Origin: Prorocentrum cordatum
Lineage: Eukaryota
NCBI GenBank assembly: GCA_963575745.1
Contig: CAUYUJ010000137.1
Span: 62,001 to 126,000, forward strand
Reading direction: 5' to 3'
Length of the DNA stretch: 64,000 nucleotides
The translations under genes and the position numbers were made by a program. Shown here one piece after another: positions 8,201 to 49,766 of this stretch. The notes below the pieces were generated by a model. That model saw nothing but the letters and a program-made list of their open reading frames with translations, made no database searches and had not been told where the DNA came from. How positions within the stretch are numbered: the stretch's first letter is position 1; every line of letters starts with the position of its first letter.

Positions 8201-8202
8201 CC

Positions 8203-16902: not shown

Positions 16903-17098
16903 TGTGTATGGGGTTGAAGTACAACGGTACAGAACCCTTAATCCGTTGGTAGAGAGAAGGAGGGATAGATGGATATCTTTCCCTCCCGCACGATCAAGGT
17001 CTGATCGATCTATCTCAGTACCTGAGCCCAAACGGCCAGGCGCAGGAGAGGTAAGGATAAGGAGTAAATACGAGGGTATTACACGGGTTCCATTCACA
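16903..17098 (-). repeat. 3' LTR (196 bp)
   Basis: TGTG...CACA termini; 5 substitutions relative to 34617-34812. Confidence 0.97.
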
Positions 17099-17109
17099 CC
17101 CCCCGTCCC
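17099..17109 (-). promoter_or_regulatory. Polypurine tract (PPT)
   Basis: Minus strand GGGACGGGGGG immediately precedes the TG of the 3' LTR. Confidence 0.85.
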
Positions 17110-17785
17110 GAATCCCGCCCGTTAAGGCGGGACTCGGGAACAGAGGAAGGAATCCGTAACCTCTGAACTCCTTTAGTCCTTAAGTCAGAAGGCAGCTGGG
17201 CTTAAAATCAGCGAAGCCACAGCTGCCAAGTGAAGTTAGAAGGAGCACCCTAAGTCCCCCTTTCTTCTCCAAGCACGCTTTGGTGCCCCCTCGGTGCGCC
17301 CCCCAAAACGCTTCGGCACTCGAGGGCGGAGAAGAATGAGACAAGGGTGGGCGGAGAAAGAAGATCTGAGCGTTAAAGCAACATGCAAACTGCCTCGCTT
17401 CTGCGAGGCAGGTGTTGCCACCAGCTAGCAGATTATTCTCGACGCAATCAGGTTTAAACTTGTTAAACTATGCATGCTAAGATCGCGTTGACGAACGCGA
17501 TCTTGACATGAAACACATCATTGTGTGAAAGCGAATGTCTGGCCAGACAAAATGTCGCGTTGATGAACACGAAAATCATGTGTAAAAGCTCTGTTTGGCG
17601 ACTCCCGTTGGCGTTGCTCCTTAGGAGGCTGCCTCGGTGATCGCAAAAGGTATTTGTGCGTGTGTGTGTGTGGCCACTTTTGTTATATATTGAAGTGGCC
17701 TAAGATATGAAATAGCCACCGCTCAAGACGAACCTTGGTTATATTGAAGTTCGTGCCTTGAGCGGTGGGCCTTGCGGCCGACGCA

Positions 17786-20398: not shown

Positions 20399-20408
20399 GC
20401 TTTTGTCA

Positions 20409-21530
20409 TTATACCATGTTTACCCATCGTAAACCGTAGTTAAGAATAGGTACTTGCACCGCAAAGAACTTGTCGAAGATGCCGAAATGGATGATTGGAC
20501 AATATATGTGTCCCTTGGTCAAGGCAATCTTGGTATTGTGATTGCCTTTGGGCCAGTGGTTGTCGTAATGAAAGCATGTGGTAGAACCCCAATTCTTGAC
20601 GACAATGAAGTCTCCCATTCGAACATCATTAAATGCAGGGCGACGGTCCCAATCTTTTTGCATGATCTTCGATGTGATCGGTCGAAGAGCTTCGCGACAA
20701 TATGACAATGCGATTAACCATTCTTTATCATCTGCTTTGTGATTGGTCTCCCGAATCATAGCGCGGACTATTTGTTCATCCAAGGCGTCTTCTGCAGACG
20801 TACGACCAGCAGGGGTTTCCCCCAGCTTGGCCGAAGTTGCTGACGCTGACGTCGCCCTTGGAGGCTCCATGTTGTGGTCGGGGTCGATAGGTGCCAATCC
20901 AGGAGGGTCGTCGATGAGCTCTCCAGGAAGGCAGGCGCAAATCTCGTACTTGCTCAATGGCTCTCTTGCTGCCAATGGCGGGTAGTCCCATGGGTCGCCA
21001 TCTGGCCATAACTGCTGGCCATGCATGTGGTGTGGTTTGAGGCGGCGAACTGTAATAATTGCCGCAGCGGGTACCACGTCCCCTGTCATGATAGCGCCCT
21101 GAACACCCAACCAAAATCTGCAACCTGCTTTTGTGGCGATTTCCATGTTGATCACCAGCTCGACCTCGGTCTTGTAGTTATTGAACTTGTATGATTCCAC
21201 TGAAGTGCGTGGAGTATTTTGAACATTGTTCAAATATGTGCTAGAACTAAAGAATGCCTCAGATCGCTGTGATGGTTTATGATATTTGTCTCTCTGAGAA
21301 GTTGGATCAACGTATCCAGGAATGATCCCTGTCTTCAATATGTTCTTCCAAGCGCGGGATGCTGTGCCGTGATGGAGATATTTAACATCTGTCCACTGTA
21401 GGCTCTCCCATCCCATATTCCATGGCTTGGAAGATGGATTGACACAACTGTGACCACCAACGCACCGAATAGCGATGACGCTGTTCCAGTCAAAAGAACT
21501 GGGGTCACCTCCCTCAGGGATCGGCTTGGC
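20409..21530 (-). CDS. Cargo ORF segment: C-terminal part of the Tpt1/KptA-like domain plus downstream unknown region
   Basis: IAIRCVGGHS, YLHHGT..AWKNILKTGIIPG, RSEAFFS, VELVINM, GCRFWLGVQGAIMTGDVVP. Confidence 0.8.
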   Translation of the reverse strand, partial: AKPIPEGGDPSSFDWNSVIAIRCVGGHSCVNPSSKPWNMGWESLQWTDVKYLHHGTASRAWKNILKTGIIPGYVDPTSQRDKYHKPSQRSEAFFSSSTYLNNVQNTPRTSVESYKFNNYKTEVELVINMEIATKAGCRFWLGVQGAIMTGDVVPAAAIITVRRLKPHHMHGQQLWPDGDPWDYPPLAAREPLSKYEICACLPGELIDDPPGLAPIDPDHNMEPPRATSASATSAKLGETPAGRTSAEDALDEQIVRAMIRETNHKADDKEWLIALSYCREALRPITSKIMQKDWDRRPAFNDVRMGDFIVVKNWGSTTCFHYDNHWPKGNHNTKIALTKGHIYCPIIHFGIFDKFFAVQVPILNYGLRWVNMV

Positions 21531-21885
21531 ATATATATATATATATATATATATCGATTCTGTTTTTCTGCGAATCAATATGCTTCTGGAACGCACGAAT
21601 AATGAATATCGGATAGTAGTCGTTCCAATCGGTATATCCATCATGTTCACCATCTTTCTTAAAGTGTGCCACTGCCGCTTCCATGGATGGTCCATTGTGT
21701 TTGTCTTTGCGATCTCTGAATTTCCATTCGACCATCTCTTTAAAGGGTTCCCAATTGCTTGGAATCTTCCATTCAGTCTTTGTTGTTTTCTCCCAGATAT
21801 TGATACGTCTGTCATGAAATTGGTTGATCCAAAACTTTTTGTAGTGAATCTCATGGCGTAACATAGTCGTAATGTCTTTGCTCAT
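21048..21885 (-). other. Tpt1/KptA-family RNA 2'-phosphotransferase-like domain (split by the (AT)12 frameshift)
   Basis: Ordered motifs SKDITTMLRH, DGY, KNRI, IRCVGGHS, HHGT, ILKTG, RSEAFFS, GCRFW..GAIMT match the Tpt1 pattern SK.LS..LRH / DGW / K.RF / IRA.QGHS / HGT / R.H.HF / G..F..S.NGV.LT. Confidence 0.8.
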
Positions 21886-23739
21886 GTATTTGTTTGTTCC
21901 CAGCCATTCTTCCTCAATTAGCTCGGGACCATAACGTACATCGTCGTAATGTGGTAATGATTTCCATTCCCACTCTGGGAAGCAACCAGACTGTGCAATG
22001 TCAGGCGCATGAGCAATCACACTATCATCATGCAATAGCTGCTCGTACCATTCATGGTCTCCCATGCAGGCAAATCCATTGGTCGCACGCGTGCCCCGCA
22101 ACATTGGGCACATGTATGGATGGTCATCTTTGACGCCTGCTTGTAGCTTCCACTCGCGAATAGTGCATGAGTTATCGAAGATCCCGATCTTGCTGGTATC
22201 CTCGTGCATGGAACGCTCGCAGCTGTCCTGCCATGACAATATATTCATCTCATGTGGAGAAGGCTCCTCCTCGGCAGGAGTTGCCTCCAGCTCCATGGCC
22301 TCAAGGTCGGTGCCGTCGTCAGGGATCGGTACCGCCTCAGCTTTTGGGAGCTGATCTGCTGGTTGTTGTTCTGCTTTGGGTTCTGGAGTCGATGGCTGCG
22401 ACACTTTTATCGATTGCGGTCCAGGTTGCAGTGGATCAGGCAATGGGCCTGGTGGGGCTGGCTGTGCTGTGTCAGCGGCTGCCTTCCATACGGATGTAGG
22501 AACATCAGGGTCATGACCCAAAGCAACTCGATCCAGTGCATTCTGCTTGAAGAATGTTTTGCATGCCTCGATGTTCTTCTCGTTTTCGGCAGCTGGGCCG
22601 ATGCGGTGAGAAGACAACCTGTTATCTTCTGCAATGATTCTTGTTTTGGTCGCATTATCATCTCCATCCAAATCTTTGATCTGATGTAAGAATTGCTCGA
22701 ATACAACCCAAGTAACTGCATGTGCATCTTCAACAGTTTTGACGATCTTGGGATGTAGGAGCTCATCTTTCTCAAGAGAATGCCAAGATGCCCAAGCCCC
22801 AGGGTATTCTTTGATCAACAGCATGAGGTACTGGAATAAGTCGTTGTATGCGATAACCCATGGATCATTATCAGGAAGGGTTTGGTCAGGATCGCCAGGG
22901 TCAGGTGCTGGCGTACGTGTCGACATTCCAGGAGTCGGCTCAGTGGTGTCGCCTGTCTCGGCAGGCAGTGATGCCGGCAATGTGCCCTCGGCACATGACG
23001 CCATCCACGCACAATGAGCCATCTCGTTTGCCGTCTGTGTCATCAACGTTGTGAGGCTGAGGTCTCTTGTCCATTCGTTTGTCAACTTTTCTCTGAAACC
23101 GAGGGCTGCCATGATTTCTTTGGCCTGCGTGTAGGCCTGATTATCCGTGACAGCAGTCAGCAATGGCGGCCTGAATGGATATGGCTGAGAAGGCAGAGAC
23201 TGCATCAAAGCGCAGAAATTGCGATAGCATACTGCGTCGCAGAATTGCGTTGTAAACATTGCCATGGTATGGTTATTATGCTTGGCGTGCCAAGCCTGTG
23301 GGGTAATCCTGTCGTACGTATCCACCCAATGGTCGGATGGAAGAACAGTGATACCACGGTTCTGCATGATATTGATCAGGTCGCTCGTGTGGTGATCAAA
23401 GTTCGGATGTACGCCCCATTGCGCTGCTTTTCCAGGTCCCATGACCGTGGGGCAGCGGAAATACTGCATCACGTCGACAAAACGTGACACGTCCACGAGC
23501 ACGTGTACGGGCATGAGCGTCGGGACGCCGCCCTCACATTCCATATTTTGGAGCTCGTATACGTTAGTAGGAGCACGATTCTGATGTCGGCGCATGTCGA
23601 TGGTGTTTTGTCCATGATTGGCACATGCGATGTCGTTCGCGCCCCATACTACCATGGCATTGAGTCCCCTGCAATAGTGTCTTTGTTTTACGTATGATGG
23701 AAAATCATTGGCCCAGTAATCCCAGATAGTCTCATTCAA
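21514..23739 (-). CDS. Cargo ORF middle segment (741 aa): SGNH-like C-terminal half, acidic/Pro linker, Tpt1 N-terminal lobe
   Basis: In frame with 23746-25536 across a single TGA; contains VVWGANDI, D..P.AWH and SKDITTMLRH. Confidence 0.75.
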   Translation of the reverse strand: MNETIWDYWANDFPSYVKQRHYCRGLNAMVVWGANDIACANHGQNTIDMRRHQNRAPTNVYELQNMECEGGVPTLMPVHVLVDVSRFVDVMQYFRCPTVMGPGKAAQWGVHPNFDHHTSDLINIMQNRGITVLPSDHWVDTYDRITPQAWHAKHNNHTMAMFTTQFCDAVCYRNFCALMQSLPSQPYPFRPPLLTAVTDNQAYTQAKEIMAALGFREKLTNEWTRDLSLTTLMTQTANEMAHCAWMASCAEGTLPASLPAETGDTTEPTPGMSTRTPAPDPGDPDQTLPDNDPWVIAYNDLFQYLMLLIKEYPGAWASWHSLEKDELLHPKIVKTVEDAHAVTWVVFEQFLHQIKDLDGDDNATKTRIIAEDNRLSSHRIGPAAENEKNIEACKTFFKQNALDRVALGHDPDVPTSVWKAAADTAQPAPPGPLPDPLQPGPQSIKVSQPSTPEPKAEQQPADQLPKAEAVPIPDDGTDLEAMELEATPAEEEPSPHEMNILSWQDSCERSMHEDTSKIGIFDNSCTIREWKLQAGVKDDHPYMCPMLRGTRATNGFACMGDHEWYEQLLHDDSVIAHAPDIAQSGCFPEWEWKSLPHYDDVRYGPELIEEEWLGTNKYMSKDITTMLRHEIHYKKFWINQFHDRRINIWEKTTKTEWKIPSNWEPFKEMVEWKFRDRKDKHNGPSMEAAVAHFKKDGEHDGYTDWNDYYPIFIIRAFQKHIDSQKNRIDIYIYIYICQADP

Positions 23740-23745
23740 CTCGCG

Positions 23746-25470
23746 TCACTTCTTGATGGAAGCGCTGTCGCTTTGGAACATGAGGCCTCTGGCTTCGCGG
23801 ATCTTCCTGATCATATTGCGCTGCTCGAGAGTGTTCTCGAACTGATTGTTGAGAATAGCGTTGGTACGGCTATCTTCTTTCTCGAAACGTTGTTTGCGTA
23901 GTTCTCCCATACCGTAGCGTATGTCTTCATAACCAGCTTCAGGCAAGAGAACGCAATCTTGACCGATCGGCGTGTCATTCTGTCTGAACCATTCCCTATA
24001 ATTGCCAAAAGAGAATGCCCACATCATGATGTCGTCGCGGATAATGGTCGGCAAATGCTCAAGAGTAGCGCCGCCCCTGTACTCCGCGCGGTTGAGGCAC
24101 GGCATAAATAGAGGTACAAGAGCAGTATGTGATGCATTGGCGAGGTCGGTTCTCTTCTGGGCAGCGTTGAGCTCGTCGATGCCGAAAGTAGGATACTTCT
24201 TGTGTGTTGCACTCTTGGCCCCTTTCTTGGGCTGCATGATCCATGTTGAGTCAGTATACAAGTTGGTCCATTTGTACGCGTGACCCGATGGCCCAAACGC
24301 ATGATGCAATAGTAGTCCCAAGTCCTCTTGTATGAGGGAGTGCCACCCATTGTCTGATAGTAGGGTAGAAACCAAGCGACCACCACAGAAGGCACTGTAT
24401 TTTGCGTGGTCCAGCTCAAATGGGTCAACATCATTACCAGGAGTAAGGCCAGGGTCATTCGAACCGATCTGGCCAGCGGCTTCGCCGAAGAAGTCGTTGC
24501 CCTCGTTGCATGGTGTCCAACGATAGGTACGTTCTGTATCATGTGGATCGTCCACTATCGCCACCCAACCATTCGGATGGTCGGATGGTGTTGCCACCGT
24601 CTTGGAGTTTGATCCGATACTTCCAAAGCCTCCGCGCGCAATCAGCCACGTAGTAAGCTTGCGGCGGAATTTGTTTGTTTGGTTAAGGTCGGAAAATGCT
24701 CTCATGTTGGTGACCAAGTTATCTTCAACAATATGGCCGATGTGTCCAGATGTATCCGATGTCCTGGCGATGCCAGGTGGACGAGTAGGTAACTTGGCCA
24801 TTGCGCGATCCATTTTAGGAGCATAGCATGGCGTTACCAATCCATTCTGGTATACATCGGATGGTGCACACAGACCATTGCTGTAGTATCTTTGCGTATC
24901 CGTAACGCTGTCCTCGGTGTATTGTCCCAGTACTGCACTGCCAATTTTGGACCAATCGTTGTGAATCATCATCCACTCCGTCTTCAGTATCATTGTCGTG
25001 AAGTTTTCTGGTGGACATTTGCGGTGCGATCCTGGGATCACCGCGTTCAAGTGATCATGTAGTCCACGAACACTTTCTTGTGCTGAAGGATTACGATTGA
25101 AAAGGCTGGAAATCATACACATAGCACGCATGAATGATAGCCACGGCGTAGCTGTGAACGTGTTGTGCTCGTAGTTGGCGTTGCCGCCGACGGATCCACT
25201 CTCGGCATTGGCCCATTTCTTAGCCTCGACGGACGCGAAGCGGGCAAGTTCACGAATAGAAGATTCGTCGGGTACGCGAAGATCGAACTCTCCGCTTCGA
25301 TCGGCACGCCGTTGATGTATGCATATGTAACCATCTTCGGGATCACGAGGACGACCAGTTTGAGCGTGGTACGCGAAGCCCACGCGGTCATCGTCCCTGG
25401 CGTTCGGGTCGTACTCCTTGTCGTAGCCGATGGGCCAGCCGACGAGGTTGAGCGGCTGTGCCTGATCCAT
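23746..25470 (-). CDS. Cargo ORF N-terminal segment (first ATG at 25470): unknown domain plus SGNH-like N-terminal half
   Basis: Long open frame; LYTDSTW and YRGGAT motifs; ends at an in-frame TGA (23746-23748). Confidence 0.7.
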   Translation of the reverse strand: MDQAQPLNLVGWPIGYDKEYDPNARDDDRVGFAYHAQTGRPRDPEDGYICIHQRRADRSGEFDLRVPDESSIRELARFASVEAKKWANAESGSVGGNANYEHNTFTATPWLSFMRAMCMISSLFNRNPSAQESVRGLHDHLNAVIPGSHRKCPPENFTTMILKTEWMMIHNDWSKIGSAVLGQYTEDSVTDTQRYYSNGLCAPSDVYQNGLVTPCYAPKMDRAMAKLPTRPPGIARTSDTSGHIGHIVEDNLVTNMRAFSDLNQTNKFRRKLTTWLIARGGFGSIGSNSKTVATPSDHPNGWVAIVDDPHDTERTYRWTPCNEGNDFFGEAAGQIGSNDPGLTPGNDVDPFELDHAKYSAFCGGRLVSTLLSDNGWHSLIQEDLGLLLHHAFGPSGHAYKWTNLYTDSTWIMQPKKGAKSATHKKYPTFGIDELNAAQKRTDLANASHTALVPLFMPCLNRAEYRGGATLEHLPTIIRDDIMMWAFSFGNYREWFRQNDTPIGQDCVLLPEAGYEDIRYGMGELRKQRFEKEDSRTNAILNNQFENTLEQRNMIRKIREARGLMFQSDSASIKK

Positions 25471-25504
25471 CTCGTGGATGGGGGGGTCGGGATTAGAACC
25501 GATC

Positions 25505-26809
25505 TCACTTATATTCGCCTCGCAAGCGGCGAACAAGATGCTTTGTAAGCTTTGCAGCTCGGGTCGTAAAATTGCTGCGGTATGAACGAATAATCAATGT
25601 CCTAACTCTCTCTGCATCTCGTGGAGGTGAGGGAAGATGGCGGGGGTGTCTACCGTGCGGTGAACGTGCGCGTGAACGAGGTGTGCGCGACGCAATATCT
25701 GCGGCTGGTACGCCAATGTGGTGCATGCATGCACATAGTCCCTCGTGGTTAGCTTGCCCAACACACTGAAATCCGCATTCTGATCCTACCTCGCCCCATC
25801 TTTCTTTTTCCGTCAACAATATCTTGCATATGTCTGGGCATCCATTCAATTTAGGAGGTTCCGTTTCATGAGGTAAGCCGTCGGGCCTCCGAGGCCCTCG
25901 TATCGGAGGACATTGTATCGGAGTAACGGGAAAGATAAGCGAGTGTTCCAAGAGATCCTTCCAAAGGTCTGCTTTCTTTGTCTCGAAATGTTTGGTCATC
26001 ATATCTGCGATCTGCTCTTTTGTTCCTACGTATTTAAGCTCGATGTGTTCAAGTTGGCATGTTTCGCATATCCAATCCAGATTGATACGATGAGTACGAT
26101 GAAGATGACGAAGTGCTGGTGTACGTCCCTTGTGGACAATTTTGATAACGGCCTGGTTATCCTCCAGGACGATAAGACGTACTTTGGGTGCACTGATCTC
26201 TGGAGCTGGCTCTGGATCCACGTGTAGTACAGTACCTTCATGGGATATCGTACGTCTCTTTGGAGTCGTAGGTAAATCCGTATTTAGCGGTAGTTGCCTA
26301 CGGCTAGGAGAAGATCCCCGTGTAGGCGGCGCCTTGCGAGGCGATGGTTTACGCTTCTTTTTGGCTGCCAATGTGGGACACATCGCCGGGTCGACGTGTC
26401 GATGGCAGCTCAGGCATGTAGTCTTCTCTTTGCATGTTTTGGCAACTCCCACCACGGCTTCCCAGAATGATAGTAGTGGTAACCCTTCCAGTCGTAGTGC
26501 GGAATCGAGAGCCACGATCTCAGATTCAGTAGATGAATGTGAAACAACCGTTTGTTTCTTACATACAGCGTTGACTGGAAAGAACGTATTGGGTCCAACA
26601 AGCGCAGCAAGAACGCCGGTAGTGGATTTGGATGATGTAATGCAGTCAGCGAACGAGGCGTCGGTAAAGAGCATGATGGATAACTTGTCGGACGAATCGC
26701 CTATCCATCCGTGTAAGCAATGTGTACGCGTCGTTTTGATGTAGCATATCAATCGATGTAGACGTTTGTCACATGTAGTATTCCATTTGGTAAGTTCCCT
26801 GGCCAACAT
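25505..26809 (-). CDS. Pol fragment: Ty1/Copia RNase H with an internal insertion and a Cys/His-rich C-terminal extension
   Basis: FTDASFAD..SSKSTTG, SHSSTESEIVAL, EDNQAVI, VGTKEQIADMMTK. Confidence 0.93.
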   Translation of the reverse strand: MLARELTKWNTTCDKRLHRLICYIKTTRTHCLHGWIGDSSDKLSIMLFTDASFADCITSSKSTTGVLAALVGPNTFFPVNAVCKKQTVVSHSSTESEIVALDSALRLEGLPLLSFWEAVVGVAKTCKEKTTCLSCHRHVDPAMCPTLAAKKKRKPSPRKAPPTRGSSPSRRQLPLNTDLPTTPKRRTISHEGTVLHVDPEPAPEISAPKVRLIVLEDNQAVIKIVHKGRTPALRHLHRTHRINLDWICETCQLEHIELKYVGTKEQIADMMTKHFETKKADLWKDLLEHSLIFPVTPIQCPPIRGPRRPDGLPHETEPPKLNGCPDICKILLTEKERWGEVGSECGFQCVGQANHEGLCACMHHIGVPAADIASRTPRSRARSPHGRHPRHLPSPPRDAERVRTLIIRSYRSNFTTRAAKLTKHLVRRLRGEYK

Positions 26810-28076
26810 ACATACCGGGATGTAGAAGATCGAAACGACAGCAACGTGCCAAGTACAGGATCTTCATTAGTACACTTGCCGCATCCTGGCCGAGGACGCC
26901 CTCGTCTGAATAGTCGGACTCAGTGAAGGAGGTGTCCTCGATGCCAGGGGTCTCTGCGTCGGGTAGGTCATGGTATGTGGCGGGTATGGTATTGGTAGAT
27001 GTCGTGTCGACCGATTTTGCTGGACTGGATGATCGCGGCCGTGCGTTGAGCACACTAGTGGGTCTGGCGACCGACCCGGAGGATGTTGGCGATTTGGATC
27101 GCGAAGCCCTCGGCGAGTCGGATCGTTTCCGACGTGACCCTGTTCCCTGGGCGCGCTTGGAGGCGCATTCCAGGCATCGCTCAATGCACTGATCTGTAAA
27201 ACCAAGCATATCATGTCGAATACCACGAACGTGTTTGGCCGTATTATAATCTTTTTCATTGTGTGCAGGTAGCATAGGGCGTATTGTGGACATTCTTTTG
27301 TCGAAGATGTTCTGCGGTACATCGTATGCTTGTTGTCCACAACCCAAGTATTGTGAGTATGGGGTAGGTGGATCCAAATCGATACCGCTTTTGCGAATAT
27401 AATCCCAACCAGTCTGTAGATTATGAGCTGGGCCGGCCAATTTAAAATCGTCCACATATACTGAAAGTATCAGTCCCAGTTTGTTGTGTCTCCATACGCA
27501 CTCCCATCCTGAAATAGGCTCGAAACCGACGCTTTCCAAGCATGTGCGGCATTTTCGTTCCCAAAAGACACCTGCGAGAGGGTGTCCGTATAGTGCCAAT
27601 CGCAATCGGCACACTGGGTTCTTGTATTTTGACCATGATGTCGGTTGTCGCCATTTGGGTATAGTAATCCAAGTATCAACTGGATCAATTCGTCCGTCGC
27701 CGTATAGTAATGCCTGCGTGTAGGCTCCAGGTGCGTCACTTTGCTCTCCCGCATATTGCGGCAATAACGCAGTAGCATCGCAAAGTTTGGAGGCCTCTAT
27801 ATGCGAAGCACTGGAAGCGGCGTCGGCGAATATGGCGGCCAAACCAGTTTCATCTTTGCCTGTATTGCCCTGAACCACCACTCTGCCCTTGAATTTACGT
27901 AGATCAGGAGGAAGATAACTCCAAGATGTTGAAGGAATGCACCTTTGTTCCATTGCGGATAGCTTGTGGCTCGATATCAGCTTTCTCTGCAACAGTCTCC
28001 AACATCCATGTTTGTTTCTTTTCCAATCTCTCGTATTATTTTCGTAAGGCTTCTTGTGCACGTGGTCATGCGGCAA
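26769..28076 (-). CDS. Pol fragment: Copia-type reverse transcriptase (N-terminus disrupted)
   Basis: KFKGRVVVQGN, QSDAPGAYTQA, LRLALYGHPLAG, LSVYVDDFKLAG, YLGC. Confidence 0.95.
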   Translation of the reverse strand: MPHDHVHKKPYENNTRDWKRNKHGCWRLLQRKLISSHKLSAMEQRCIPSTSWSYLPPDLRKFKGRVVVQGNTGKDETGLAAIFADAASSASHIEASKLCDATALLPQYAGEQSDAPGAYTQALLYGDGRIDPVDTWITIPKWRQPTSWSKYKNPVCRLRLALYGHPLAGVFWERKCRTCLESVGFEPISGWECVWRHNKLGLILSVYVDDFKLAGPAHNLQTGWDYIRKSGIDLDPPTPYSQYLGCGQQAYDVPQNIFDKRMSTIRPMLPAHNEKDYNTAKHVRGIRHDMLGFTDQCIERCLECASKRAQGTGSRRKRSDSPRASRSKSPTSSGSVARPTSVLNARPRSSSPAKSVDTTSTNTIPATYHDLPDAETPGIEDTSFTESDYSDEGVLGQDAASVLMKILYLARCCRFDLLHPGMYVGQGTYQMEYYM

Positions 28077-30453
28077 CTTCTTTCTTACTCAGGTTTCTGG
28101 TAACGAGTGCTGGGCGTGACCATGTCGAATCTGGTATTTTATCTCTGTGTGCCGGCGTGTAGTTGGTCTCACGTGGCATGGTTGGTATTACTACCGACTG
28201 GGTGAACTTGCGTATAAGCGGGTTCAAAGTCCCAAAGTCGGTTCCCTCATTATCCACAAATACCAAAGCACGTTCTTCTCCATCATGCTGTTGTGGTAGT
28301 TGACGGTAGTATAGTACCGTAGTAATGTCACGTGGCCCACCAGGTAATTTGGCATACAGTATTTCTTTGTCTGTCACGCCTTTGACGTTCTCGTCGCGGA
28401 TGACGTCGCCATTGTCAGTGTCGTATGTAATCCGTCGTTCCACAGTATTCCAGGTTGGTCCGCCTGATGTAGTAGTGCGGAAATTGTTGACCTGTTTATC
28501 CTGCCTTGTCCACACTTTTAGTGCGGCGCGATCACGAATTTCTCGAGCTCGTTTAACGTCGTTGGCGCAATCGATCTCTTTCTTTTGCTGTCCACGAGAA
28601 AGTGTTTTCCAATGCTCGGGAAGAACGTGATCAAGACGTGTAGTAGTCTGCATGCGTGTCTCACGTCCACGAACCACCATTTTACCGTCTGGCGTTATTT
28701 TTGGAAGCTCATAGAACTGAATCGTGCCTGTCCATGGCTCACTTAACTCCCTGTGGTCGTTGGCGCTAACACCATCCCAAACGTCTCTGAAGTTACTTTC
28801 TCCCTCAAAAGTAGAAGTCGTTTTGAAATCTCGTGTCACATCGAGTTGGTCAACAGGTACAAGTATGTTCATGACGTCGTCCGTCGGGATGAACAGTTTC
28901 CTTCTTGGAGTACGGATATGTCTGATGACGCAATATCCACGCTGTTCCCAGTAGTCTGGCTCCGGCGCTGGTGCAGCAACTTCAGAGGCCGATGTCTGGA
29001 TATTAACAGCGTTGTCCTCCGTTGTCATCGTAGATGGATCATCCCATTCTTTGGGGTAGGAAAGTGGAGGGTCAGGCATTAAGGGGCGAGAAGTGGATGC
29101 CTTCACCTCGTCGTGTGCCTCAGGGTCATGATGTCGTAGGGTACCATCTTTGACGGGGTAGGTGAACTTGCCATCAGGGATGATGATGTCTTTGACTCTG
29201 TGCACATGACACAGTTCACCATCAGGGTTCTTGGCGTATGTAGCCGTGTCCAAGACAAGGTAGTCTCCTGACCATCGTCCACCGGAGTGTAAGTGGTATC
29301 CCATGAATAACCCTTCCCGAGTATTTTCTTTAAACTTTGCAGTCTCGTTGTTAATCTCGGGGTTGAGGCATTTCCAAAAGATCCGAGCACCGAATGGTAT
29401 GCAGTGCCCAGGAAAGCTTTCGCCAAATCTTATTTCATGAGCTGTCTTTTCTGCATGCTCCTCGTTGAGGGCGGCAACGCCCGTGGATGTATGCACAAAA
29501 TTGTGTCCACAGCAAAAGGCTTGCATGGCCTCTTTCCACCATTCGTGTCCCAGACCAGACATATGTAACACAGCTCTGGTACCGAGAATGTCAATTTTGA
29601 CAACGCGCTCAATCAATCCATTCGTCTGTGGACGATGTGGCGTACTCGTGTCGTGTCTCCATCCCAGTTGGCGGCAAGCTTTCTGAAGCTCTCCAGAGTT
29701 ATCTGTATAGATATGCTTCACCTCATCGTTCGCGGCGATGAACTGTTGAAAGGATGCCTTTGTGGTAGCTGCGTCTTTGCGAAGCGCTGGGTAGGCCGTG
29801 AAGATGCCAGTATATGTGTCAAGGACAACAAGTGCATATTTGTCGCCATGTTTGTCCGCGGCATCGTCTTTGGCCAGTACTACATGGTCGGCAGTTAGAG
29901 CCTCGCCGAACTTCTTCGGGACAAAAGTCTCGTAGGCGTTATCCTCGTCGGTGGGGTCTGCCGGTGGATGTGGTTTGCGCTGTCGTCTACACGGGGCATT
30001 CTGTGCCATCGTACGGGAACAGATCTCACAGTCAGGGTGTTTTGGGCTGTGGGTCATGTAATGCATCGGGTCGATCGGTTTCTTTTGCCTGTTGGGTAGA
30101 ACTCGATCGTTGTCGTGATGCGTTCGTGTATGTGTCTCTGTCGGTATGTCGCTATCTGCTTGAGCTATATCTAACCCCCCGCATTGTGGAAGAGAACACT
30201 GCGTCTGAGACGTAGGCGAGTCGGTGGTTGTGTCCACGTTGGGCTCGTCTGTGCTTGTGTCGGGAGGTTCTTCGACCGTGATGGTCCGTGCTCCTCCTCC
30301 CTCTCCGACATGTGGTCTCTTGGGGCAGGTCCCTATGTGGGGCCGTAGCTCGTCTGCAGTGGTCGGTTGCTCTGTAGTTTTGCAGCACCAACAAGTGTCG
30401 TTACAGCGGGCGGATGAACGCTTTCGCTGACGACGGCGGGGTGCGAAGTGCAT
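28066..30453 (-). CDS. Pol fragment: integrase (HHCC plus DDE core) with a long C-terminal extension
   Basis: HYMTHSPKHPDCEIC, TADHVV, VVLDTYT, YTDNSGEL, STPHRPQTNGLIERVV; ends at a premature TGA. Confidence 0.95.
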   Translation of the reverse strand: MHFAPRRRQRKRSSARCNDTCWCCKTTEQPTTADELRPHIGTCPKRPHVGEGGGARTITVEEPPDTSTDEPNVDTTTDSPTSQTQCSLPQCGGLDIAQADSDIPTETHTRTHHDNDRVLPNRQKKPIDPMHYMTHSPKHPDCEICSRTMAQNAPCRRQRKPHPPADPTDEDNAYETFVPKKFGEALTADHVVLAKDDAADKHGDKYALVVLDTYTGIFTAYPALRKDAATTKASFQQFIAANDEVKHIYTDNSGELQKACRQLGWRHDTSTPHRPQTNGLIERVVKIDILGTRAVLHMSGLGHEWWKEAMQAFCCGHNFVHTSTGVAALNEEHAEKTAHEIRFGESFPGHCIPFGARIFWKCLNPEINNETAKFKENTREGLFMGYHLHSGGRWSGDYLVLDTATYAKNPDGELCHVHRVKDIIIPDGKFTYPVKDGTLRHHDPEAHDEVKASTSRPLMPDPPLSYPKEWDDPSTMTTEDNAVNIQTSASEVAAPAPEPDYWEQRGYCVIRHIRTPRRKLFIPTDDVMNILVPVDQLDVTRDFKTTSTFEGESNFRDVWDGVSANDHRELSEPWTGTIQFYELPKITPDGKMVVRGRETRMQTTTRLDHVLPEHWKTLSRGQQKKEIDCANDVKRAREIRDRAALKVWTRQDKQVNNFRTTTSGGPTWNTVERRITYDTDNGDVIRDENVKGVTDKEILYAKLPGGPRDITTVLYYRQLPQQHDGEERALVFVDNEGTDFGTLNPLIRKFTQSVVIPTMPRETNYTPAHRDKIPDSTWSRPALVTRNLSKKEVAA

Positions 30454-31860
30454 AAACGTGGTGGTGGTATCAGTGTTAAGTCGTCGAGTCGTAACTCTGG
30501 CACTCGATTGTTGACTGGAATATTATACCATTGGCCCCCCGGATCCTGAAGCATGTAGCCCAGCTCAGGATCCCAAAGCTGTCGAAAGCCATCAACCTCA
30601 ATCAATTTTCCAACTGATAGCAATGATGGGCAGTCTGGTAAAGCAAGGGCTGAACTATGCAGTCCAACCTCGGGTAGCCGTATGTCGTAGTGCTCGTTAA
30701 CGGTACGATCACCATTTGCAGTTTCCAGAATATGTTCTTCGCGAATAGATATGCGATCCGACTCGGTCTGCGTAAGTTCATGTTTTCCCTGAATATGATG
30801 GGCAGAACCACTGTCGAGAACCCAAGACCTTGTCAATGCTGCAGTCGAACGTGGAGGGTCAACTTGCTTTGTCGTTGTCGTCGTCTGGTAAGTCTTTGAT
30901 GACTGCTTGACAGTGTCGTCATACTTTCGGATCGCAGTTGGTGTGGCCACCGACTCTTTGTTGTGTCGGTAGTCATATAGTTCGTCGTACCAGAGTTGTG
31001 CCTCCTTTTGACATTCTCGTAAGGCATCTGCACTGTCATCCCACCATTTTTGTGGTAATGGATCTGGTACTTTGACGATGTCACCCTCGTTCGGCAGCTC
31101 TTTCCATCTGTCCAGTCTGGCTCTGCCAGATATGGTATGGAAGTAGTAGTCCACGCTGCGCACGTCGAAGCGTATCCGGCGACGTGTCTTGGTAGATGTC
31201 GCTGTGGCCTTAGTGTTGGCCATGAAGGTCTTGTCACGGATGACGTAACTGCGGTCTGAACGGCGTGAACGTCTAAAGTTGGCAGGAGAACGTGCTCTAG
31301 TGTTGGGAGAACCACGGAACGATCCGCGGCTCGGATACCGTTTGCCACGTCCTTTGTCACTACCATATGATCTATCACGGCCGCGTGGACTGCCGCGTCC
31401 GCCGCCACGATTGTCTCGTCCTCGGGAGGTAGATCTCGAAGATCTGTCGTAACGACTTCTCGATTGGCTGCGAGAGTCTTGGGACCTCCTGGATGTCGAA
31501 CGGGATCGGTCGTATTGGCGTCGGTTGTCACGTCCCTGTCGTGAATCGCTTGCGTAGCGAAACCCCCCGCGTTGTGAAGACCGTTGGCTTCCTGATCCGC
31601 GGGATGGTGATCGGCCACGGCTGTCCTGGCTGGAAGTCCGTGGTCGACTCGGGCTTCGTTCAGGAGTCTTTGCACCAGGTGCAAGATGAGCGTATTTGCA
31701 TGTGTCGCCTTTTGTGCACTTGTTCTGTGCGAAATCTTTGCACTGTGCGACGTGTGGGAAGTTACACTTATCACCTCTGGTACATGTGTTGCGCTTGGCG
31801 AAATCGAAGCAGAATGGTTTCGATGCTGGCTTCTTGTGATTCGCAGGAGTGGACATACTA
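30333..31860 (-). CDS. Gag-Pol fragment: two CCCH zinc fingers, Arg/Ser-rich region, aspartic protease
   Basis: CFDFAKRNTCTRGDKCNFPH, CKDFAQNKCTKGDTCKYAH; WVLDSGSAHHI, LETANG, PSLLSVGKL. Confidence 0.9.
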
Positions 31861-34552
31861 CGGCGGGGGGTTGCCACCAGCCGTTGATGTTCTGGAAGGT
31901 TTGTTGTTCTTCCAACCCCTGGAATATGTATGTAAAGCCTTGCACCGTTCACCGTTGCGACAACTGCCTTTCTTCCATGCAGCGCACACGTTGACCTGAG
32001 ACCGTGTCTCATGTTCGTACCGTAGCTTGTTTTGATTCTTCTCCAATTTTTTAATCTCCAGTATGTCCAGGACACGCTGCCGAAGCCAGCCGTAGGTACG
32101 ATTCGGGTCGCTCATCTTCATGCGCTGGTACTCGTACATGTCTTGTTTCATCCATGCATGTCTACGAATCTGTGTGCGAAATAGCGATTCCAATATCTTT
32201 GGATCGGGTACTTCTCGGCATTCCAAGAGTAAGGCGTCCCAATCGGTAATGAAACGTTGCAAATCTTCATCTCTCATCCTCAGTTCTTTAAGGCGCTCGA
32301 AATCGTGCAGGTCGTCGTCAACGTCTGTCACTTTGTAGGACTGCAGGATATGCCAGTAGATTTGGCGTCCTTTGAGCATGCGTCCTGCTTTGTGCTCTCT
32401 GGTCTCGATGAGCCTGATTTGGTAGCGTAAGTCTGAGAATAAGATGTCGCTCAGAGCGGTTGCGAGTTTGCAATCGATGCTCTCAAAGTCTCCACTGTCT
32501 TGTAAATCCTCGAATGTACATTCGGGCTGTTCTGCCACGCATAGGAAGGCGTATGCTTTGGATGGTCGCCCTGAAGCGGCCCCGAAGTTCTTCCGCACTC
32601 TTTGCTGCCACTCCAGCAGCTGCGTGATCTTAGGCAAGACAGGTACTCGGACGGTGTCTGACTCCTTGATAGGAGTCGTTGTATGGACCGACACCGCAGA
32701 CACTGGTTGTGAGGGTATCGGTGCACCGTCGGTGGTTGGTTCTGTGCGCACAGGAGACACATGACGTGTCTGTGCAGAAGCTGCCGCGGAGGCTGCTCCT
32801 GGGAACGTACGTCGTTGTTGTCCTGCTGAAGCTTGTGGTGCTTCGGCGGACGCTGCCGTCGGCCTGTGCGGAGCGGCTGCAGGTCGAAGGTGGATGTTGG
32901 TGTCGTTAGTGTGGTCGATCAGCTGATTCGTCCAGCTCGTCATGTCTTCTTGTATTTGACCCACCTCTTGGCGTGTATACTCATCAGTATCCCGAGAACG
33001 TTGTGAATACCGATCAAGTCGATGCTCGTATGCTCGGAGACGGGCGCTTTGTGCCTCCATCTCGCTTTCCAGACGTGCGAGGTAACTCTCTACACGTACC
33101 TTCTCAGTATCTCTTTCATGAATAACCTGGGAGAGCTCTAACTGCGTGTGGTCCGCCGCCTTCTCAACCTCCTGCAACCTGTCAGTGAGGCGGGCGAAAT
33201 CGTAAACCGTGGGAGGAGAATCCAGCTGATCAGTCTGGGCTCGTCCGACACGCAACTCTGCCAGGGCGTCCTGTACACCAGGAAAACGCTGCTCTATGTC
33301 AGAGATCCGGTTAGCGAGTGGCTGCACGACAGCGTTGGTCGCATCAAGCCTTTGAGTGATGACTCTCTCAGTACGCTGCAACATGTCGATCAGGTTCGAC
33401 GAGTTGGTGTGTGCTTCGGTACGAAGCGTCGCCGTAGTGTGGTCTAGATAAGATCGAAGATCATTGATCTGAGACTGAACGTCGCCAAGGTCTGTGGCCT
33501 CGGTTGGAGTTGGTCGGTTGCGGAGCTGGTCGTGGATCTCATCATGTAAAATCCTGACTGCTGAAACGCCTGTGTCGCGTACGAGCACAAGCTGTTGCTC
33601 CATCTGCGCGAGGTAGTTGCGCAGGTTCTCGACCATCGCCGTTCGTTCACCTGAGTGTGACACCTCACGATCAACCTGGTACTGCAGTTCTCCTATGATG
33701 CGTCGATCTTCGGCGATCCTGGAATCGATGATCCCTAAGGCGCCGTCAAGATCGCGGCGTATGGCTGCAGTATCGGTGGCGTTCGTCTGAACGCTCTGTA
33801 GTAGTCCAGAGTATTGGCTGGACACGAAGGTTTCAACCTGGTCTCTGAGCTCAGCTATGTCACCTGCGGCGGACGTCTCCGCCAGCTGGTCGTCTGAGAT
33901 GGAGAGGTGGGGAGCGTCAGCTTCCCTGTGTCCCCTGTCGCGGGGAGTACATGGCCTCTGAGAGGCAGTGCGCGGGCTCGACCTGCTTTCGCCGCATGGG
34001 CCTGGGGCTCCACGGCGGTTGCGCGCGGACGAGCTGCGACTCGGACCATGTGTGTGTGGTGTCTCATCCGATGATACCTTGGGGTACCGCGTCTGCGGCT
34101 GTGCCGACACTGGTCTACTGAGTTCCTCGAAGGTAGCTACGTGCTCCGCCACAGGGGCGGTCGCAGGGCTGGGGGTCCCAGCGCCTGAGGTCCATCGGCG
34201 GTTAGCGCGAAAGCGCCCTGGAGTATCGAGACCAGTAAGGCTTTCGCCTGACGCGGTTGGGATTGCTCCCGACGGGGAAGGGGAGGGAGGATCGAAGGTC
34301 GGCGTGTGAAACTCCTTCCTTCCTGTTCCTACTCCTTCTCCTGTCCCCCCGCGGGCGGCGCTGCGGCGAAGTTCAGCAGCTAGTCGCGCCTCGGGTCCTT
34401 CGGGAGCTGGGGGGGTGGGGGGGGTTATCTGGAACACCAACACAGTCCGCATTAATGCTCTCCAACTCGTCACCGAGCCGTCGGGCCGTGGGAGAGCTCG
34501 GACGCGAAGGGCCGATGGAACCCTTGCGGCGCATGCGCCGAAGTGGCTCCAT
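31858..34552 (-). CDS. Gag (long coiled-coil N-terminus, capsid-like core, first CCCH finger); probable start ATG at 34552 with a frameshift in the C-runs near 34410
   Basis: 871-aa open frame directly downstream of the PBS; heptad-rich middle; GRMLKGRQIYW; CAAWKKGSCRNGERCKALH. Confidence 0.85.
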
Positions 34553-34603
34553 CAGGCTCGCATGCGAGGTCACCGCGGGCGAGTCGGTGAGGGTGAGCTT
34601 TAA

Positions 34604-34616
34604 AGGGCTGATAACC
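34604..34616 (-). promoter_or_regulatory. Primer-binding site, half-tRNA(iMet) type
   Basis: GGTTATCAGCCCT abuts the 5' LTR; one mismatch from the GGTTATGAGCCCT anticodon-arm complement used by Ty5-like elements; lacks the TGG of CCA-end priming. Confidence 0.75.
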
Positions 34617-34808
34617 TGTGTATGGGGTTGAAGTACAAGGGTACAGAACCCCTGATCCGTTGGTAGAGAGAAGGAGGGATAGATGGATATCTTTCCCTCC
34701 CGCACGATCAAGGTCTGATCGATCTATCTCAGTACCTGAGCCCAAACGGCCAGGCGCAGGAGAGGTAAGGATAAGGAGTAAATATGAGGGTATGACACGG
34801 GTTCCATT

Positions 34809-34812
<4 letters not shown>
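34617..34812 (-). repeat. 5' LTR (196 bp)
   Basis: Direct repeat of 16903-17098. Confidence 0.97.

Positions 34813-34876
<64 letters not shown>
34813..34876. repeat. (AG)n microsatellite, right insertion flank
   Basis: Seen directly. Confidence 0.95.
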
Positions 34877-35249
34877 ACAAAACAAAAAAAGACGCGGACA
34901 TCGAACGGCGAACCCACGGGCCGCACGGCCGCTCAATCCATCGGTGAGACCATATATACGTGCAGCAACTGATCAACGCAAGAAAGTTCGACTACTCCTC
35001 GGTCCTCGCCTCATGCACCCCCCCTTCCGTCCTCCTCCATTTTTCTTTTTGTGGTGAGCCCATATATATATATATATATATAGAAAGAAAGATCGAAAAC
35101 CCTATTCGCCTGCTGCGAGCGAAGCCGCGTGCGGCACAACGCAAGCACACGCAGGCCGCCCCCCCCCATGGGTCGGCCCCACGATCCATTGTGAAAACTG
35201 AAAACATCAAAATATGATTGCGAGAACCATTATCACAACCACTGTTCAC

Positions 35250-36790
35250 ACAATTCTGGAAACCATTGTGAACATCATGGCGAAAACCACGGTTCCAGTG
35301 TGAAAACCATTGTGAATTCCATTGTGGAAACCATTGGAAATTCCACGATTCCACGATTCCATGATTCCATTGCGAAAACTATTTCGAATTCCACGATTCC
35401 ACGATTCCACGATTCCATTGCGCAAACCCTGGTGAATTCCACGATTCCACGATTCCACGGCGAAAACCATTGTGATTCCACGGTTCCACGATTCCATTGC
35501 GAAAACCATTGCGAATTCCATGGTTCCACGATTCCATGGTTCCATTGCGAAAACCATTGCGAATTCCAGGATTCCACGATTCCGCGATTCCACGATTCCA
35601 TTGCGAAAACCATTGTGAATTCCACGATTCCACGATTCCATTGCGAAAACCATGGTGAATTCCACAATTCCACGATTCCACTGTGAAAACCATTGTGAAT
35701 TCCACGATTCCACGATTCCATGATTCCATTGCGAAAGCCATTGCGAATTCCACGATTCCACGATTCCATGATTCCATTGTGAAAGCCATTTTAAATTCCA
35801 CGATTCCACGATTCCACGATTCCATGATTCCATTGAGAAAACCATTGTGACTTCCACGATTCCACGATTCCATGATTCCATTGCGAAAACCATTGTGAAT
35901 TCCACGATTCCACGATTCCATTGCGAAAGCCATTGTGAATTCCACGATTCCACGATTCCACTGTGAAAGCCATGGTGGGTTCCACGATTCCACGATTCCA
36001 TTGCGAAAACCATTGCGAATTCCATGATTCCACGATTCCACGATTCCATGATTCCATTGCGAAAGCCATTGCGAATTCCAGGATTCCACGATTCCGCGAT
36101 TCCACGATTCCATTGCGAAAACCATTGTGAATTCCACGATTCCACGATTCCATTGCGAAAACCATTGTGAATTCCACAATTCCACGATCCCACGATTCCA
36201 CTGTGAAAACCATGGTGAATTCCACGATTCCACGATTCCATGATTCCATTGCGAATTCTACGAGTCCACGATTCCATGATTCCATTGCGAAAACCATTGT
36301 GAATTCCACGATTCCACGATTCCATGATTCCATTGCGAAAACCATTGTGAATTCCACGATTCTACGATTCCACGATTCCATAGCGAAAACCATTGTGAAT
36401 TCCACGATTCCACGATTCCATTGCGAAAACCACGATGGATTCCACGATTCCATTGCAAAAACCATTGTGGACTCCACGATTCCACGATTCCATGATTCCA
36501 TTACGAAAACCATTGTGAATTCCACGATTCCACGATTCCATTGCGAGAGCCATTGTGAATTCCACGGTTCCACGATTCCATTGCGAAAACCATAGTGAAT
36601 TCCACGGTTCCACGATTCCACGATTCCATTACGAAAACCATGGTGAATTCCACGATTCCACGATCCCACGATTCCACTGTGAAAACCATGGTGAATTCCA
36701 CGATTCCGCGATTCCATTGTGAAAACCATTGTGGAATCCACGATTCCACGATCGAAAACCATTCTGTGGTCATGATTCCACGATTCCACT
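35250..36790. repeat. Minisatellite: (TTCCACGA)n interleaved with CCATTGCGAAAACCATTGTGAA
   Basis: ~1.5 kb of tandem higher-order units built from 8-mers. Confidence 0.95.

Positions 36791-49733: not shown

Positions 49734-49766
<33 letters not shown>

Follow-up and report, generated by a model that had tools for sequence, protein, structure and literature searches.

LTR retrotransposons seldom encode enzymes besides protease, integrase (IN) and reverse transcriptase (RT)/RNase H, and each extra enzyme (dUTPase, chromodomain, DNMT) has exposed a pressure on the element. The hemivirus-type Ty1/copia elements, which are roughly 5-6 kb long, encode IN before RT. A precedent for RNA end-healing encoded by a mobile element comes from phage T4, whose Pnkp and Rnl1 heal cleaved tRNA and counter anticodon nuclease. 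This serves as an analogy only, as the T4 enzymes are unrelated to those considered here, act in the repair of host tRNA against the nuclease, and do so without reverse transcription. Proteins of the Tpt1/KptA/TRPT1 family (PF01885) are known as free proteins of ~180-230 aa. Half-tRNA (hemivirus) priming, which the original prediction for this locus took as established for Ty5 and copia, is indeed described for both, and for 1731 and Osser of Volvox, a member from a green alga (PMC1181622). In these elements the primer binding site (PBS) adjoins the LTR and is described as complementary to the initiator tRNA-Met anticodon stem-loop, with a primer end near nucleotide 40 (PMC1181622, PMC5371799). 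For the capture and spread of a nucleic-acid-modifying enzyme, the DNMT-carrying retrotransposons of dinoflagellates and charophytes provide a precedent, and the same source describes Symbiodinium Copia elements as lacking DNMT (PMC5890265). The locus we describe here differs from the DNMT retrotransposons in that its cargo is a Tpt1-like ART rather than a methyltransferase, and in that its carrier is a Copia element.

The element is a minus-strand Ty1/copia-type LTR retrotransposon of 17,910 bp (16903-34812) lying in the window, by which we mean the whole 64-kb stretch of DNA that was analysed, and at 17.9 kb it far exceeds the known hemivirus-type elements. Its 5' LTR (34617..34812, minus strand; 196 bp, TGTGAATGG...CCCCATACACA) and 3' LTR (16903..17098, minus strand) were delimited by self-BLAST and alignment, and the pair is 97.4% identical by self-BLAST, with 191/196 positions identical in the alignment and TG..CA ends (TGTG...ACA). 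A polypurine tract, GGGACGGGGGG (17099..17109, minus strand), is found directly 5' of the 3' LTR. CTCTC occurs on both sides of the element, which sits within a (CT)n microsatellite, so the signal of a 5-bp target-site duplication is ambiguous. The original prediction had assigned its system to 21048..34616, a range that does enclose the PBS and the Tpt1-like domain; the element is wider than this, and 21048 marks the C-terminal end of that domain. No flanking host genes were recognized, as the 15 long ORFs in the flanks gave 0 Pfam matches. A search for the dinoflagellate spliced-leader motif returned one match with 2 mismatches, and such a match likewise arose in 13/100 shuffles.

The 13-mer GGTTATCAGCCCT (34604..34616, minus strand) adjoins the 5' LTR, and holds the position of a primer binding site because it starts right after the LTR end, at the first base beyond the terminal ...ACACA. 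The exact 13-mer has one occurrence in the window, and the LTR is not followed by the TGG that a PBS of the CCA-end type would show. Twelve of its 13 bases agree with GGTTATGAGCCC(T), a reference that is a yeast string rather than a host tRNA; by our own arithmetic, the chance of a 12/13 match at one fixed position is ~6e-7. GGTTATGAGCCC forms part of a yeast oligo published in a study of Met-tRNAiMet binding (PMC11230868), and we take this oligo to be the tRNAiMet probe. The claim that the PBS is complementary to a tRNA anticodon arm and not to the CCA end is thus borne out. Judged by its sequence, the PBS is of the hemivirus type: its predicted pairing covers the 5' portion of the anticodon arm of the initiator tRNA and stops near nucleotide 40, like that of Ty5. 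Minus-strand synthesis would then start from a 5' fragment of the host's tRNAiMet. No tRNA gene was found within the window, and a pattern composed of the LTR end, the PBS (with N at position 7) and the leader gave 0 matches in metagenome contigs and 0 in genome contigs.

The sole mismatch falls at PBS position 7 (34610), where a C stands for G opposite anticodon C34, setting this PBS apart from those of the known hemivirus-type elements. It could be a post-insertion mutation of a dead copy or a tolerated mismatch, and we give the two about even odds. Inosine pairs with C, and we considered a tRNA-Ile primer with a GAU anticodon or I34. Initiators typically have a GGG/CC stem, and since the PBS pairs with such a stem, we rate a G34/I34 tRNA as less likely.

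Between the LTRs runs a chain of open frames that totals ~5,590 codons and is interrupted by 7 frameshifts and 1 TGA; it reads gag(CCCH)-IN-RT and then extends for ~3,400 more codons that include the Tpt1-like domain and are extra relative to hemivirus-type elements. The gag-like region (30336..34551, minus strand), defined from the ORF chain and Pfam, combines an N-terminal part resembling a coiled coil with CCCH zinc fingers at about 31686-31817 and about 31940-31990 (Pfam zf_CCCH_4 38.8 bits, zf-CCCH 31.7 bits) in place of the usual CCHC zinc knuckles; it has one frameshift inside 31861-32111, and the protease presumably lies downstream. As in the hemivirus-type elements, IN is encoded 5' of an RVT_2-type RT on the element strand, with both domains scoring slightly below their cut-offs: the integrase core (rve; 29629..29859, minus strand) matches PF00665 at E 2.8e-7 and 31.1 bits (cut-off 32.6), and the Copia-type RT (RVT_2; 27339..27899, minus strand) matches PF07727 at E 4.5e-7 and 30.1 bits (cut-off 31.6). 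A search with the IN ORF gave 3 matches only, none of them named; the relative P0054, which shares 35% identity, is an IN-RT polyprotein.

Past the RT, the chain continues as an open frame of ~1,800 codons (21886..27338, minus strand; from the ORF chain) that belongs to no recognised family, at the start of which RNase H is expected. This stretch has an in-frame TGA at 23746-23748 and frameshifts inside 26772-26863 and 25508-25593. The C-terminal ~1,080 codons of the chain (17789..21047, minus strand) likewise match no recognised family and have a frameshift inside 20412-20419; protein fragments of relatives cover this stretch. Searches for further cargo with Pfam, NCBIfam and PADLOC yielded only noise or coiled-coil matches. 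The scan of the element also returned a weak Tox-ART-HYE1 match (E 0.095), and Atlas scores were 0.89 or lower, to bacterial clusters, and uninformative.

The Tpt1/KptA-like domain occupies ~21048-21885 on the minus strand, inside the LTR pair and on the open-frame chain that also encodes IN and RT, in agreement with the original prediction that the element carries Tpt1 cargo. Its C-terminal (NAD+) lobe (21048..21476, minus strand), which contains IAIRCVGGHS, YLHHGT, QRSEAFFSS and GCRFWLGVQGAIMT, was identified through PF01885, a PDB profile, Foldseek and VIA. Against PF01885 the lobe scores 25.3 bits (E 1.8e-5), 0.7 bit below the cut-off of 26, and among 10 relatives scanned, 6 match at E<=0.1 and 3 exceed the cut-off (P0045 27.0, P0052 42.2, P0041 43.5). 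All 7 matches from a profile search of PDB with the C-lobe were Tpt1 (best E 0.0068). With an AF2 model of the lobe (pLDDT 68.8), Foldseek ranks 1-22 were all Tpt1/KptA (best E 2.9e-4), including 11/11 matches at E<=0.001, and VIA placed Tpt1 chains at Z 13.5 (137 aligned residues, rmsd 3.7), 10.6 and 9.7, while the top-scoring ART outside Tpt1 reached 8.5. As modelled, then, the C-lobe has the NAD+ lobe of the Tpt1 fold, and its nearest solved structures are those of Tpt1. The N-terminal (RNA) lobe (21547..21885, minus strand) was placed at the level of motifs only, by MSKDITTMLRHE (SK, RH) and QKNRIDIY (K-x-R); it had no match in Pfam or PDB searches, its AF2 model (pLDDT 35.9) was unusable, and phmmer searches started from P0052 and P0045 retrieved no Tpt1. 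In the window copy an (AT)12 microsatellite (21531..21554, minus strand) shifts the frame between the two lobes, and the relative P0014 crosses the junction in a single frame (...NRIEIYGKPLS...IAIRCVGGHS).

The Arg-His-Arg-Arg tetrad is found in order as LRH, K-N-R and Q-R-SEAFFS. For mapping we used the CthTpt1 residues S10, K11, R18, H19, K66, R68 and R121 as given in PMC6333775, with the fourth Arg and HGT placed via a HMMER alignment to 6e3a, and RH and K-x-R by motif and MAFFT alignment only; the Arg of QRSEAFFSS is the equivalent of R121. The SK, RH, K-x-R, HGT and R motifs follow the canonical order of the Tpt1/KptA/TRPT1 family, yet the distance from RH to K-x-R is ~85 residues here and ~47 in CthTpt1 (PMC6333775 numbering). 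The N-lobe motif is conserved between the window and 4/4 close fragments, and takes the form FLSKVCRH in P0045. Relatives at 40-74% identity retain the SK, RH, K-x-R, HGT and R motifs. The ART H-H-h triad, as defined in PMC8120803, is incomplete: the first His (HGT) is there, and the second His position is Phe in 7/8 covering sequences and Val in 1/8. The chemistry of the domain may differ because this second triad His is replaced by Phe. The tail of the polyprotein carries a divergent Tpt1/KptA-like domain, one that differs from described family members in being embedded in a retrotransposon polyprotein, in its Phe, and in scoring under the Pfam cut-off.

The closest protein fragments bear the label Pyramimonas, which is a green alga and no dinoflagellate, and no result here points to a dinoflagellate host. 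More distant Tpt1-like relatives, such as P0045, have the domain in common with the element and not the flanks; because these relatives share the domain alone, it is not confined to this polyprotein. A scan of viral, metagenome and genome contigs with the Tpt1 alignment found no relative, and no protein of greater length that contains this Tpt1 region scored, which is weak evidence. No relative came to light that spans both the PBS and the Tpt1 region. Sequencing runs had many contigs lying on the element (18,804 in X1, 9,264 in X2, 334 in X9 and 2,201 in X3), with all 30 element bins, Tpt1 bins included, covered in 4/4 runs and 2,158 places at which the sequences vary. Among the 40 of these places that were listed, which do not include PBS position 34610, indels set other copies apart at 20415 (2 additional bases), 26817, 30443 and 31865, positions inside 4/7 frameshift intervals. 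At least four frameshifts of the window copy are repaired in other family members, and the element is a decayed copy of a giant high-copy Ty1/copia-type family, of which no intact full-length copy was seen. The window copy itself is unable to make the protein because of its 7 frameshifts and 1 stop, with one frameshift inside the Tpt1 domain.

The cargo might instead be a passenger or a capture in decay, derived from part of a host or viral gene and without a role in transposition, or it might now act as a non-catalytic or protein-directed ART module. The loss of the second triad His to Phe would fit this, as would an expanded N-lobe that profiles do not recognise and distant relatives that share the domain alone; in X1 and X2 the cargo half also receives only about half the summed depth of gag-RT, though depth is not copy number. 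Set against this are the catalytic motifs retained in fragments of 40-74% identity while their surroundings diverge, the position of the domain within a Pol frame chain covered in 4/4 runs, and the spread of so large a family with the cargo on board, and we consider a passenger unlikely. The explanation that we favor overall, at a probability of roughly 45%, is a giant Copia element with a hemivirus PBS and a Pol-borne Tpt1-like enzyme that modifies phosphate termini. The domain would be made as part of Pol and hence packaged with RT, and it would be an active NAD+-dependent enzyme that moves ADP-ribose onto RNA or DNA phosphate. RNA and DNA 5'-phosphate ADP-ribosylation is described as widespread among Tpt1 enzymes (PMC8120803, PMC12678800). 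We tentatively propose, inferring both target and role entirely, that the domain modifies the phosphate termini of element-associated nucleic acid, through 5'-phosphate ADP-ribose capping or 2'-phosphate removal, to the benefit of the element. It is more doubtful that the domain is a working part of retrotransposition that, as a Pol tail in particles, carries out NAD+-dependent editing of nucleic-acid phosphate ends. If it were, one option would be ADP-ribose capping of cDNA or element RNA at the 5'-phosphate, which would guard these ends from exonucleases or end-joining while 3'-OH ends stay free for integrase; the other would be the clearing of 2'/3' phosphates off the tRNA-fragment primer.

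A further alternative is a role in RNA repair or counter-defence: through canonical removal of an internal 2'-PO4, the domain would complete the mending of element RNA or host tRNA that has been cut and then rejoined by a Trl1-like ligase of the plant/fungal type, with host Tpt1 limiting. Phage T4 Pnkp/Rnl1 would be the mobile-element precedent, and the green-alga label of the closest relatives is in keeping with such a role. The intact RH-R-R tetrad is described as a signature of 2'-PO4/3'-PO4 junction recognition (PMC6333775), and a 2'-PO4 is the product left by plant- and fungal-type ligases (PMC10622864). However, Pfam, NCBIfam and PADLOC found no ligase, kinase or CPDase domain anywhere in the element, the host is expected to have its own Tpt1, and there is no sign that element RNA is cut and religated, which leaves this scenario rather improbable.

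The original prediction builds on an element that combines a PBS of the half-tRNA type with a Tpt1-like domain: the domain would heal the primer by stripping a terminal 2'/3' phosphate that an endonuclease has left behind, which would give RT a 3'-OH to extend. Being part of Pol, it would be packaged along with RT and primer. However, 2',3'-cyclic phosphates are not opened by Tpt1, and the predicted primer end, within the stem at ~nucleotide 40, is not a usual cutting site of the stress RNases whose products end in cyclic phosphates. The elements Ty5, copia, 1731 and Osser prime from a half-tRNA and, to our knowledge, do not encode Tpt1. RNase P cleavage yields a 3'-OH. It is to RNase P cleavage that a review assigns the Ty5 primer end (PMC5371799). 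The premise that a subset of Tpt1 enzymes strips terminal phosphates does hold, as Clostridium and Aeropyrum Tpt1 are described as removing terminal 2'- and 3'-PO4 and Chaetomium Tpt1 terminal 2'-PO4, but human and Runella Tpt1 are described in the same source as lacking terminal phosphatase activity (PMC6573784). Nothing here speaks in favor of the link between priming and healing itself and some evidence speaks against it, so it is disfavoured, and we regard it as a long shot; the earlier interpretation, half-tRNA priming together with primer healing by Tpt1, is partly supported.

Literature searches found no Tpt1/KptA-type enzyme in a Copia polyprotein, and Tpt1-like cargo in an LTR retrotransposon is apparently unreported. 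Copia elements can attain ~18 kb with a single frame of ~5,600 codons, and hemivirus-type priming reaches to this giant Copia family. Roles of Tpt1 outside fungal and plant tRNA splicing are described as an open question (PMC6573784), and a high-copy element that retains its catalytic motifs is a natural place to look for a physiological Tpt1 substrate. If the domain does work on phosphate ends in particles, by either option, this would be the first known retroelement with its own NAD+-dependent nucleic-acid end-modifying enzyme.

A direct repeat emerges from self-comparison of the window, at 16903-17098 and 34617-34812 (97.4% identity). Alignment of the pair gives a minus-strand LTR of 196 bp, identical at 191 of 196 positions, that starts with TGTG and ends with ACACA. 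Read on the minus strand, the 13-mer GGTTATCAGCCCT (34604-34616, an exact match that occurs once in the window) begins at the first base past the upstream repeat, and the last base of the purine run GGGACGGGGGG directly precedes the downstream repeat. Direct repeats, an abutting primer binding site (PBS) and an abutting purine run together identify 16903-34812 on the minus strand as a 17,910-bp LTR retrotransposon. The range first given was 21048-34616; the element is bigger, and 21048 is the C-terminal end of its Tpt1-like domain. CTCTC is present at both element ends, and because the insertion site lies within a (CT)n microsatellite, this 5-bp duplication is not diagnostic. On the 5' flank (34812-34876) the microsatellite, (CT/AG)n, runs to 32.5 AG units; on the 3' flank (16841-16902) a (TA/TATG)n tract comes after CTCTCTCTCTCT. 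A satellite array of ~1.5 kb (35210-36804) lies ~400 bp beyond the 5' LTR, on its upstream side; in it the 8-nt unit ATTCCACG is interleaved with ATTCCATTGCGAAAACCATTG, and higher-order periods of 40, 48, 88 and 96 bp are found. Other repeats in the window include dispersed, locally reiterated repeats of 86-97% identity in two GC-rich regions ~42 kb apart (6426-7577 and 48506-50569), and a short-period tandem array at ~54.4-54.9 kb (54434-54900) with relatives at 45176-45332, 37865-38215 and 59020-59149, one of them inverted.

Open frames tile element-strand positions 262-17024 without gaps, giving a chain of ~5,590 codons that changes frame seven times and has a single in-frame TGA (23746-23748). 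Along the minus strand, Pfam places CCCH zinc fingers first (gag region, 38.8 bits); the integrase core (E 2.8e-7) comes next, then the Copia-type reverse transcriptase RVT_2 (E 4.5e-7) and, ~6 kb past RVT_2, PF01885 (Tpt1/KptA). Integrase precedes reverse transcriptase, which is the Copia order. The other ~3,000 post-RT codons have no match in Pfam, NCBIfam or PADLOC. The gag fingers (30336-32111 and 31861-33300) are of the CCCH type, zf_CCCH_4, instead of the CCHC knuckles typical of LTR retrotransposons, and two distant relatives, P0055 and P0056, likewise combine CCCH fingers with protease or integrase. Another ADP-ribosyltransferase family, Tox-ART-HYE1, gives a weak Pfam match (E 0.095, 12.5 bits) at residues 211-303 of the piece 23749-24669, ~2 kb upstream of the Tpt1-like domain, and this match is probably noise. 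Around the element, 15 long flanking ORFs yielded no Pfam matches, and a search for spliced-leader motifs found them at chance level only.

This copy is dead, and its family is large. When contigs of four public sequencing runs were placed on the element at ≥85% identity, 18,804 came from X1, 9,264 from X2, 334 from X9 and 2,201 from X3, and each run covered all 30 element bins, those of the Tpt1-like domain included. The Tpt1-like cargo belongs to the family. Among the 12 indels listed of 68 are insertions of two bases at 20415 and of four at 30443 in other copies, and single-base losses at 26817 and 31865, each within one of the seven frame-change intervals. Of the seven frameshifts, at least four are therefore lesions that other copies do not share, and across those four the reading frame of the family presumably runs on unbroken. 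In X1 and X2 the summed depth of the 3' half is about half that of gag-RT, a depth that does not equate to copy number. Runs X3-X8 and X10-X20, which are marine, freshwater, estuary and urban metagenomes from 14 studies, contain 9-40% of the element's sampled 31-mers; the family, or the organism that carries it, may have a wide distribution.

The Tpt1-like domain occupies 21048-21885 on the minus strand. Its C-lobe, the NAD+ lobe (20982-21524), scores 25.3 bits against PF01885 (E 1.8e-5; cut-off 26) over profile positions 73-175 of 177. When 1.84 billion representatives were searched exhaustively with HMMER, 49 matched at E≤0.001, most of them short fragments. Pfam detects PF01885 at E≤0.1 in six of the ten relatives scanned, three of which exceed the cut-off (P0045, 27.0; P0052, 42.2; P0041, 43.5 bits). 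Against all PDB sequences, an 11-sequence profile finds seven matches at E≤1, every one an RNA 2'-phosphotransferase (best E 0.0068). The AlphaFold model of the C-lobe (mean pLDDT 68.8) agrees: all 11 Foldseek matches at E≤0.001 are Tpt1/KptA/TRPT1, as are all the matches listed at ranks 1-22, after which come DarT and other ADP-ribosyltransferases. TkoKptA structures with 5'-p-ADPR-DNA are among these fold matches. An independent all-against-all structural alignment of the model ranks mouse TRPT1 (Z 13.5; 137 residues aligned, rmsd 3.7), TkoKptA (Z 10.6) and yeast Tpt1 (Z 9.7) ahead of the best non-Tpt1 ADP-ribosyltransferase, Scabin (Z 8.5). The N-lobe, or RNA lobe, had no matches in Pfam, phmmer and profile searches, and its model (pLDDT 35.9) is unusable; we assign it provisionally, from its motifs. 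Cluster look-ups of relatives led in four of ten cases to EukProt Pyramimonas sp. CCMP1952, a prasinophyte green alga, and otherwise to ENA metagenome proteins. The same Pyramimonas label is carried by all four protein matches of the N-lobe, and fragments so labelled show 56-89% identity. Nothing in these analyses supports the dinoflagellate host first assumed, and the host is possibly a Pyramimonas-like green alga.

In Clostridium thermocellum Tpt1 the phosphate-binding set comprises Ser10, Lys11, Arg18, His19, Lys66, Arg68 and Arg121, as described in PMC6333775. The motifs of the element run in the order MSKDITTMLRHE (SK, RH), QKNRIDIY (K-x-R), IAIRCVGGHS, YLHHGT and QRSEAFFSS, and in the HMMER alignment to 6e3a the two HGT motifs coincide, while RSEAFFS has its R next to R121 of GRQYVHLS. 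The window copy and all four close fragments retain RH, which appears as FLSKVCRH in the distant P0045. K-x-R is likewise present in the window copy and in P0023, P0010, P0045, P0050, P0052 and P0053, and P0014 has N-N-R at this place. An (AT)12 tract (21531-21554, minus strand) separates the N-lobe from the C-lobe frame, and because its length shifts the frame, the lobes are in different frames in this copy. The relative P0014 reads ...NRIEIYGKPLS...IAIRCVGGHS... in one frame. The domain departs from known enzymes in two respects: RH and K-x-R are ~85 residues apart, versus ~47 in the Clostridium thermocellum protein, and the second His of the H-H-h triad of ADP-ribosyltransferases (as defined in PMC8120803) is Phe in seven of eight covering sequences and Val in one. 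A wider clade of ENA metagenome proteins (P0045, P0050, P0052, P0041/P0053) has the variant motif RSE.FFS, in which Phe replaces that His, and these proteins have the domain, and not its flanks, in common with the element. We conclude that the domain is a divergent Tpt1/KptA-like one and that it probably binds NAD+ and a nucleic-acid phosphate. That it is a passenger, or non-catalytic, strikes us as rather doubtful.

At position 7, opposite anticodon base C34, the PBS has C where the initiator-type GGTTATGAGCCC(T) has G; at every other position the two are equal. The original description of the site as complementary to a tRNA anticodon arm was therefore right. A yeast oligonucleotide that we take to be a tRNAiMet probe includes ...CAGGGTTATGAGCCC. 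It appears in the oligo table of a paper on Met-tRNAiMet binding (PMC11230868). The hemiviruses Ty5, copia, 1731 and Osser are described as using a half-tRNA primer (PMC1181622), with synthesis starting from the 3'-OH at nucleotide 40, within the anticodon stem-loop that initiator tRNA-Met contributes (PMC1181622, PMC5371799). The PBS pairs with the GGG run of the anticodon stem and the adjoining CC, and three successive G-C pairs in this stem are given as an initiator hallmark in PMC3017606. This pairing makes an initiator tRNA a better candidate than a G34 tRNA-Ile: the C lies opposite the wobble base, as first noted, and the GAU anticodon then suggested is less likely. We infer that C could also be paired by a tRNA-Ile carrying inosine-34, provided that its stem were initiator-like. 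At 2.6% LTR divergence, we calculate a ~15% chance that a 13-base site has been hit since insertion, and G-to-C changes are a minor share of the variable places listed among other copies; the C may be a mutation private to this copy or a family-wide mismatch. No other copies with the LTR-end plus PBS pattern were found in metagenome and genome contigs.

The element thus joins a Copia-type organization and a hemivirus-type PBS to a Tpt1-like domain in the frame chain of Pol. A 5' fragment of tRNAiMet would prime minus-strand synthesis, and the domain would be made as a tail of Pol and hence be co-packaged with reverse transcriptase. Healing of the cleaved tRNA-half primer by the domain, as originally proposed, is very unlikely on four grounds. 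Hemiviruses prime without any known Tpt1 of their own. Cyclic phosphates are not Tpt1 substrates. RNase P cleavage leaves a 3'-OH. It is to RNase P that the Ty5 primer end is attributed in PMC5371799, and PMC6573784 describes terminal phosphatase activity as patchy across Tpt1 enzymes. A part in RNA repair or counter-defence, by the canonical removal of 2'-PO4, also seems unlikely, a reading weakened by the absence of ligase, kinase or CPDase domains from the element in Pfam, NCBIfam and PADLOC searches. The Tpt1 side activity reported as most widely conserved is 5'-phosphate ADP-ribosylation of RNA and DNA (PMC8120803, PMC12678800), and the domain may transfer ADP-ribosyl from NAD+ to a nucleic-acid phosphate. 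Our leading guess, to which we give a probability of roughly 35%, is modification by the domain of the ends of nucleic acid associated with the element.

Full-text searches, with the broadest of them covered at its top-ranked matches, gave no description of a Tpt1/KptA domain in a retrotransposon. Enzymatic cargo has a precedent in the DNMT-carrying retrotransposons of dinoflagellates, and the Symbiodinium Copia elements described in the same paper are without DNMT (PMC5890265). The family represented by this copy is one of giant hemivirus-like Copia elements with Tpt1-like cargo.
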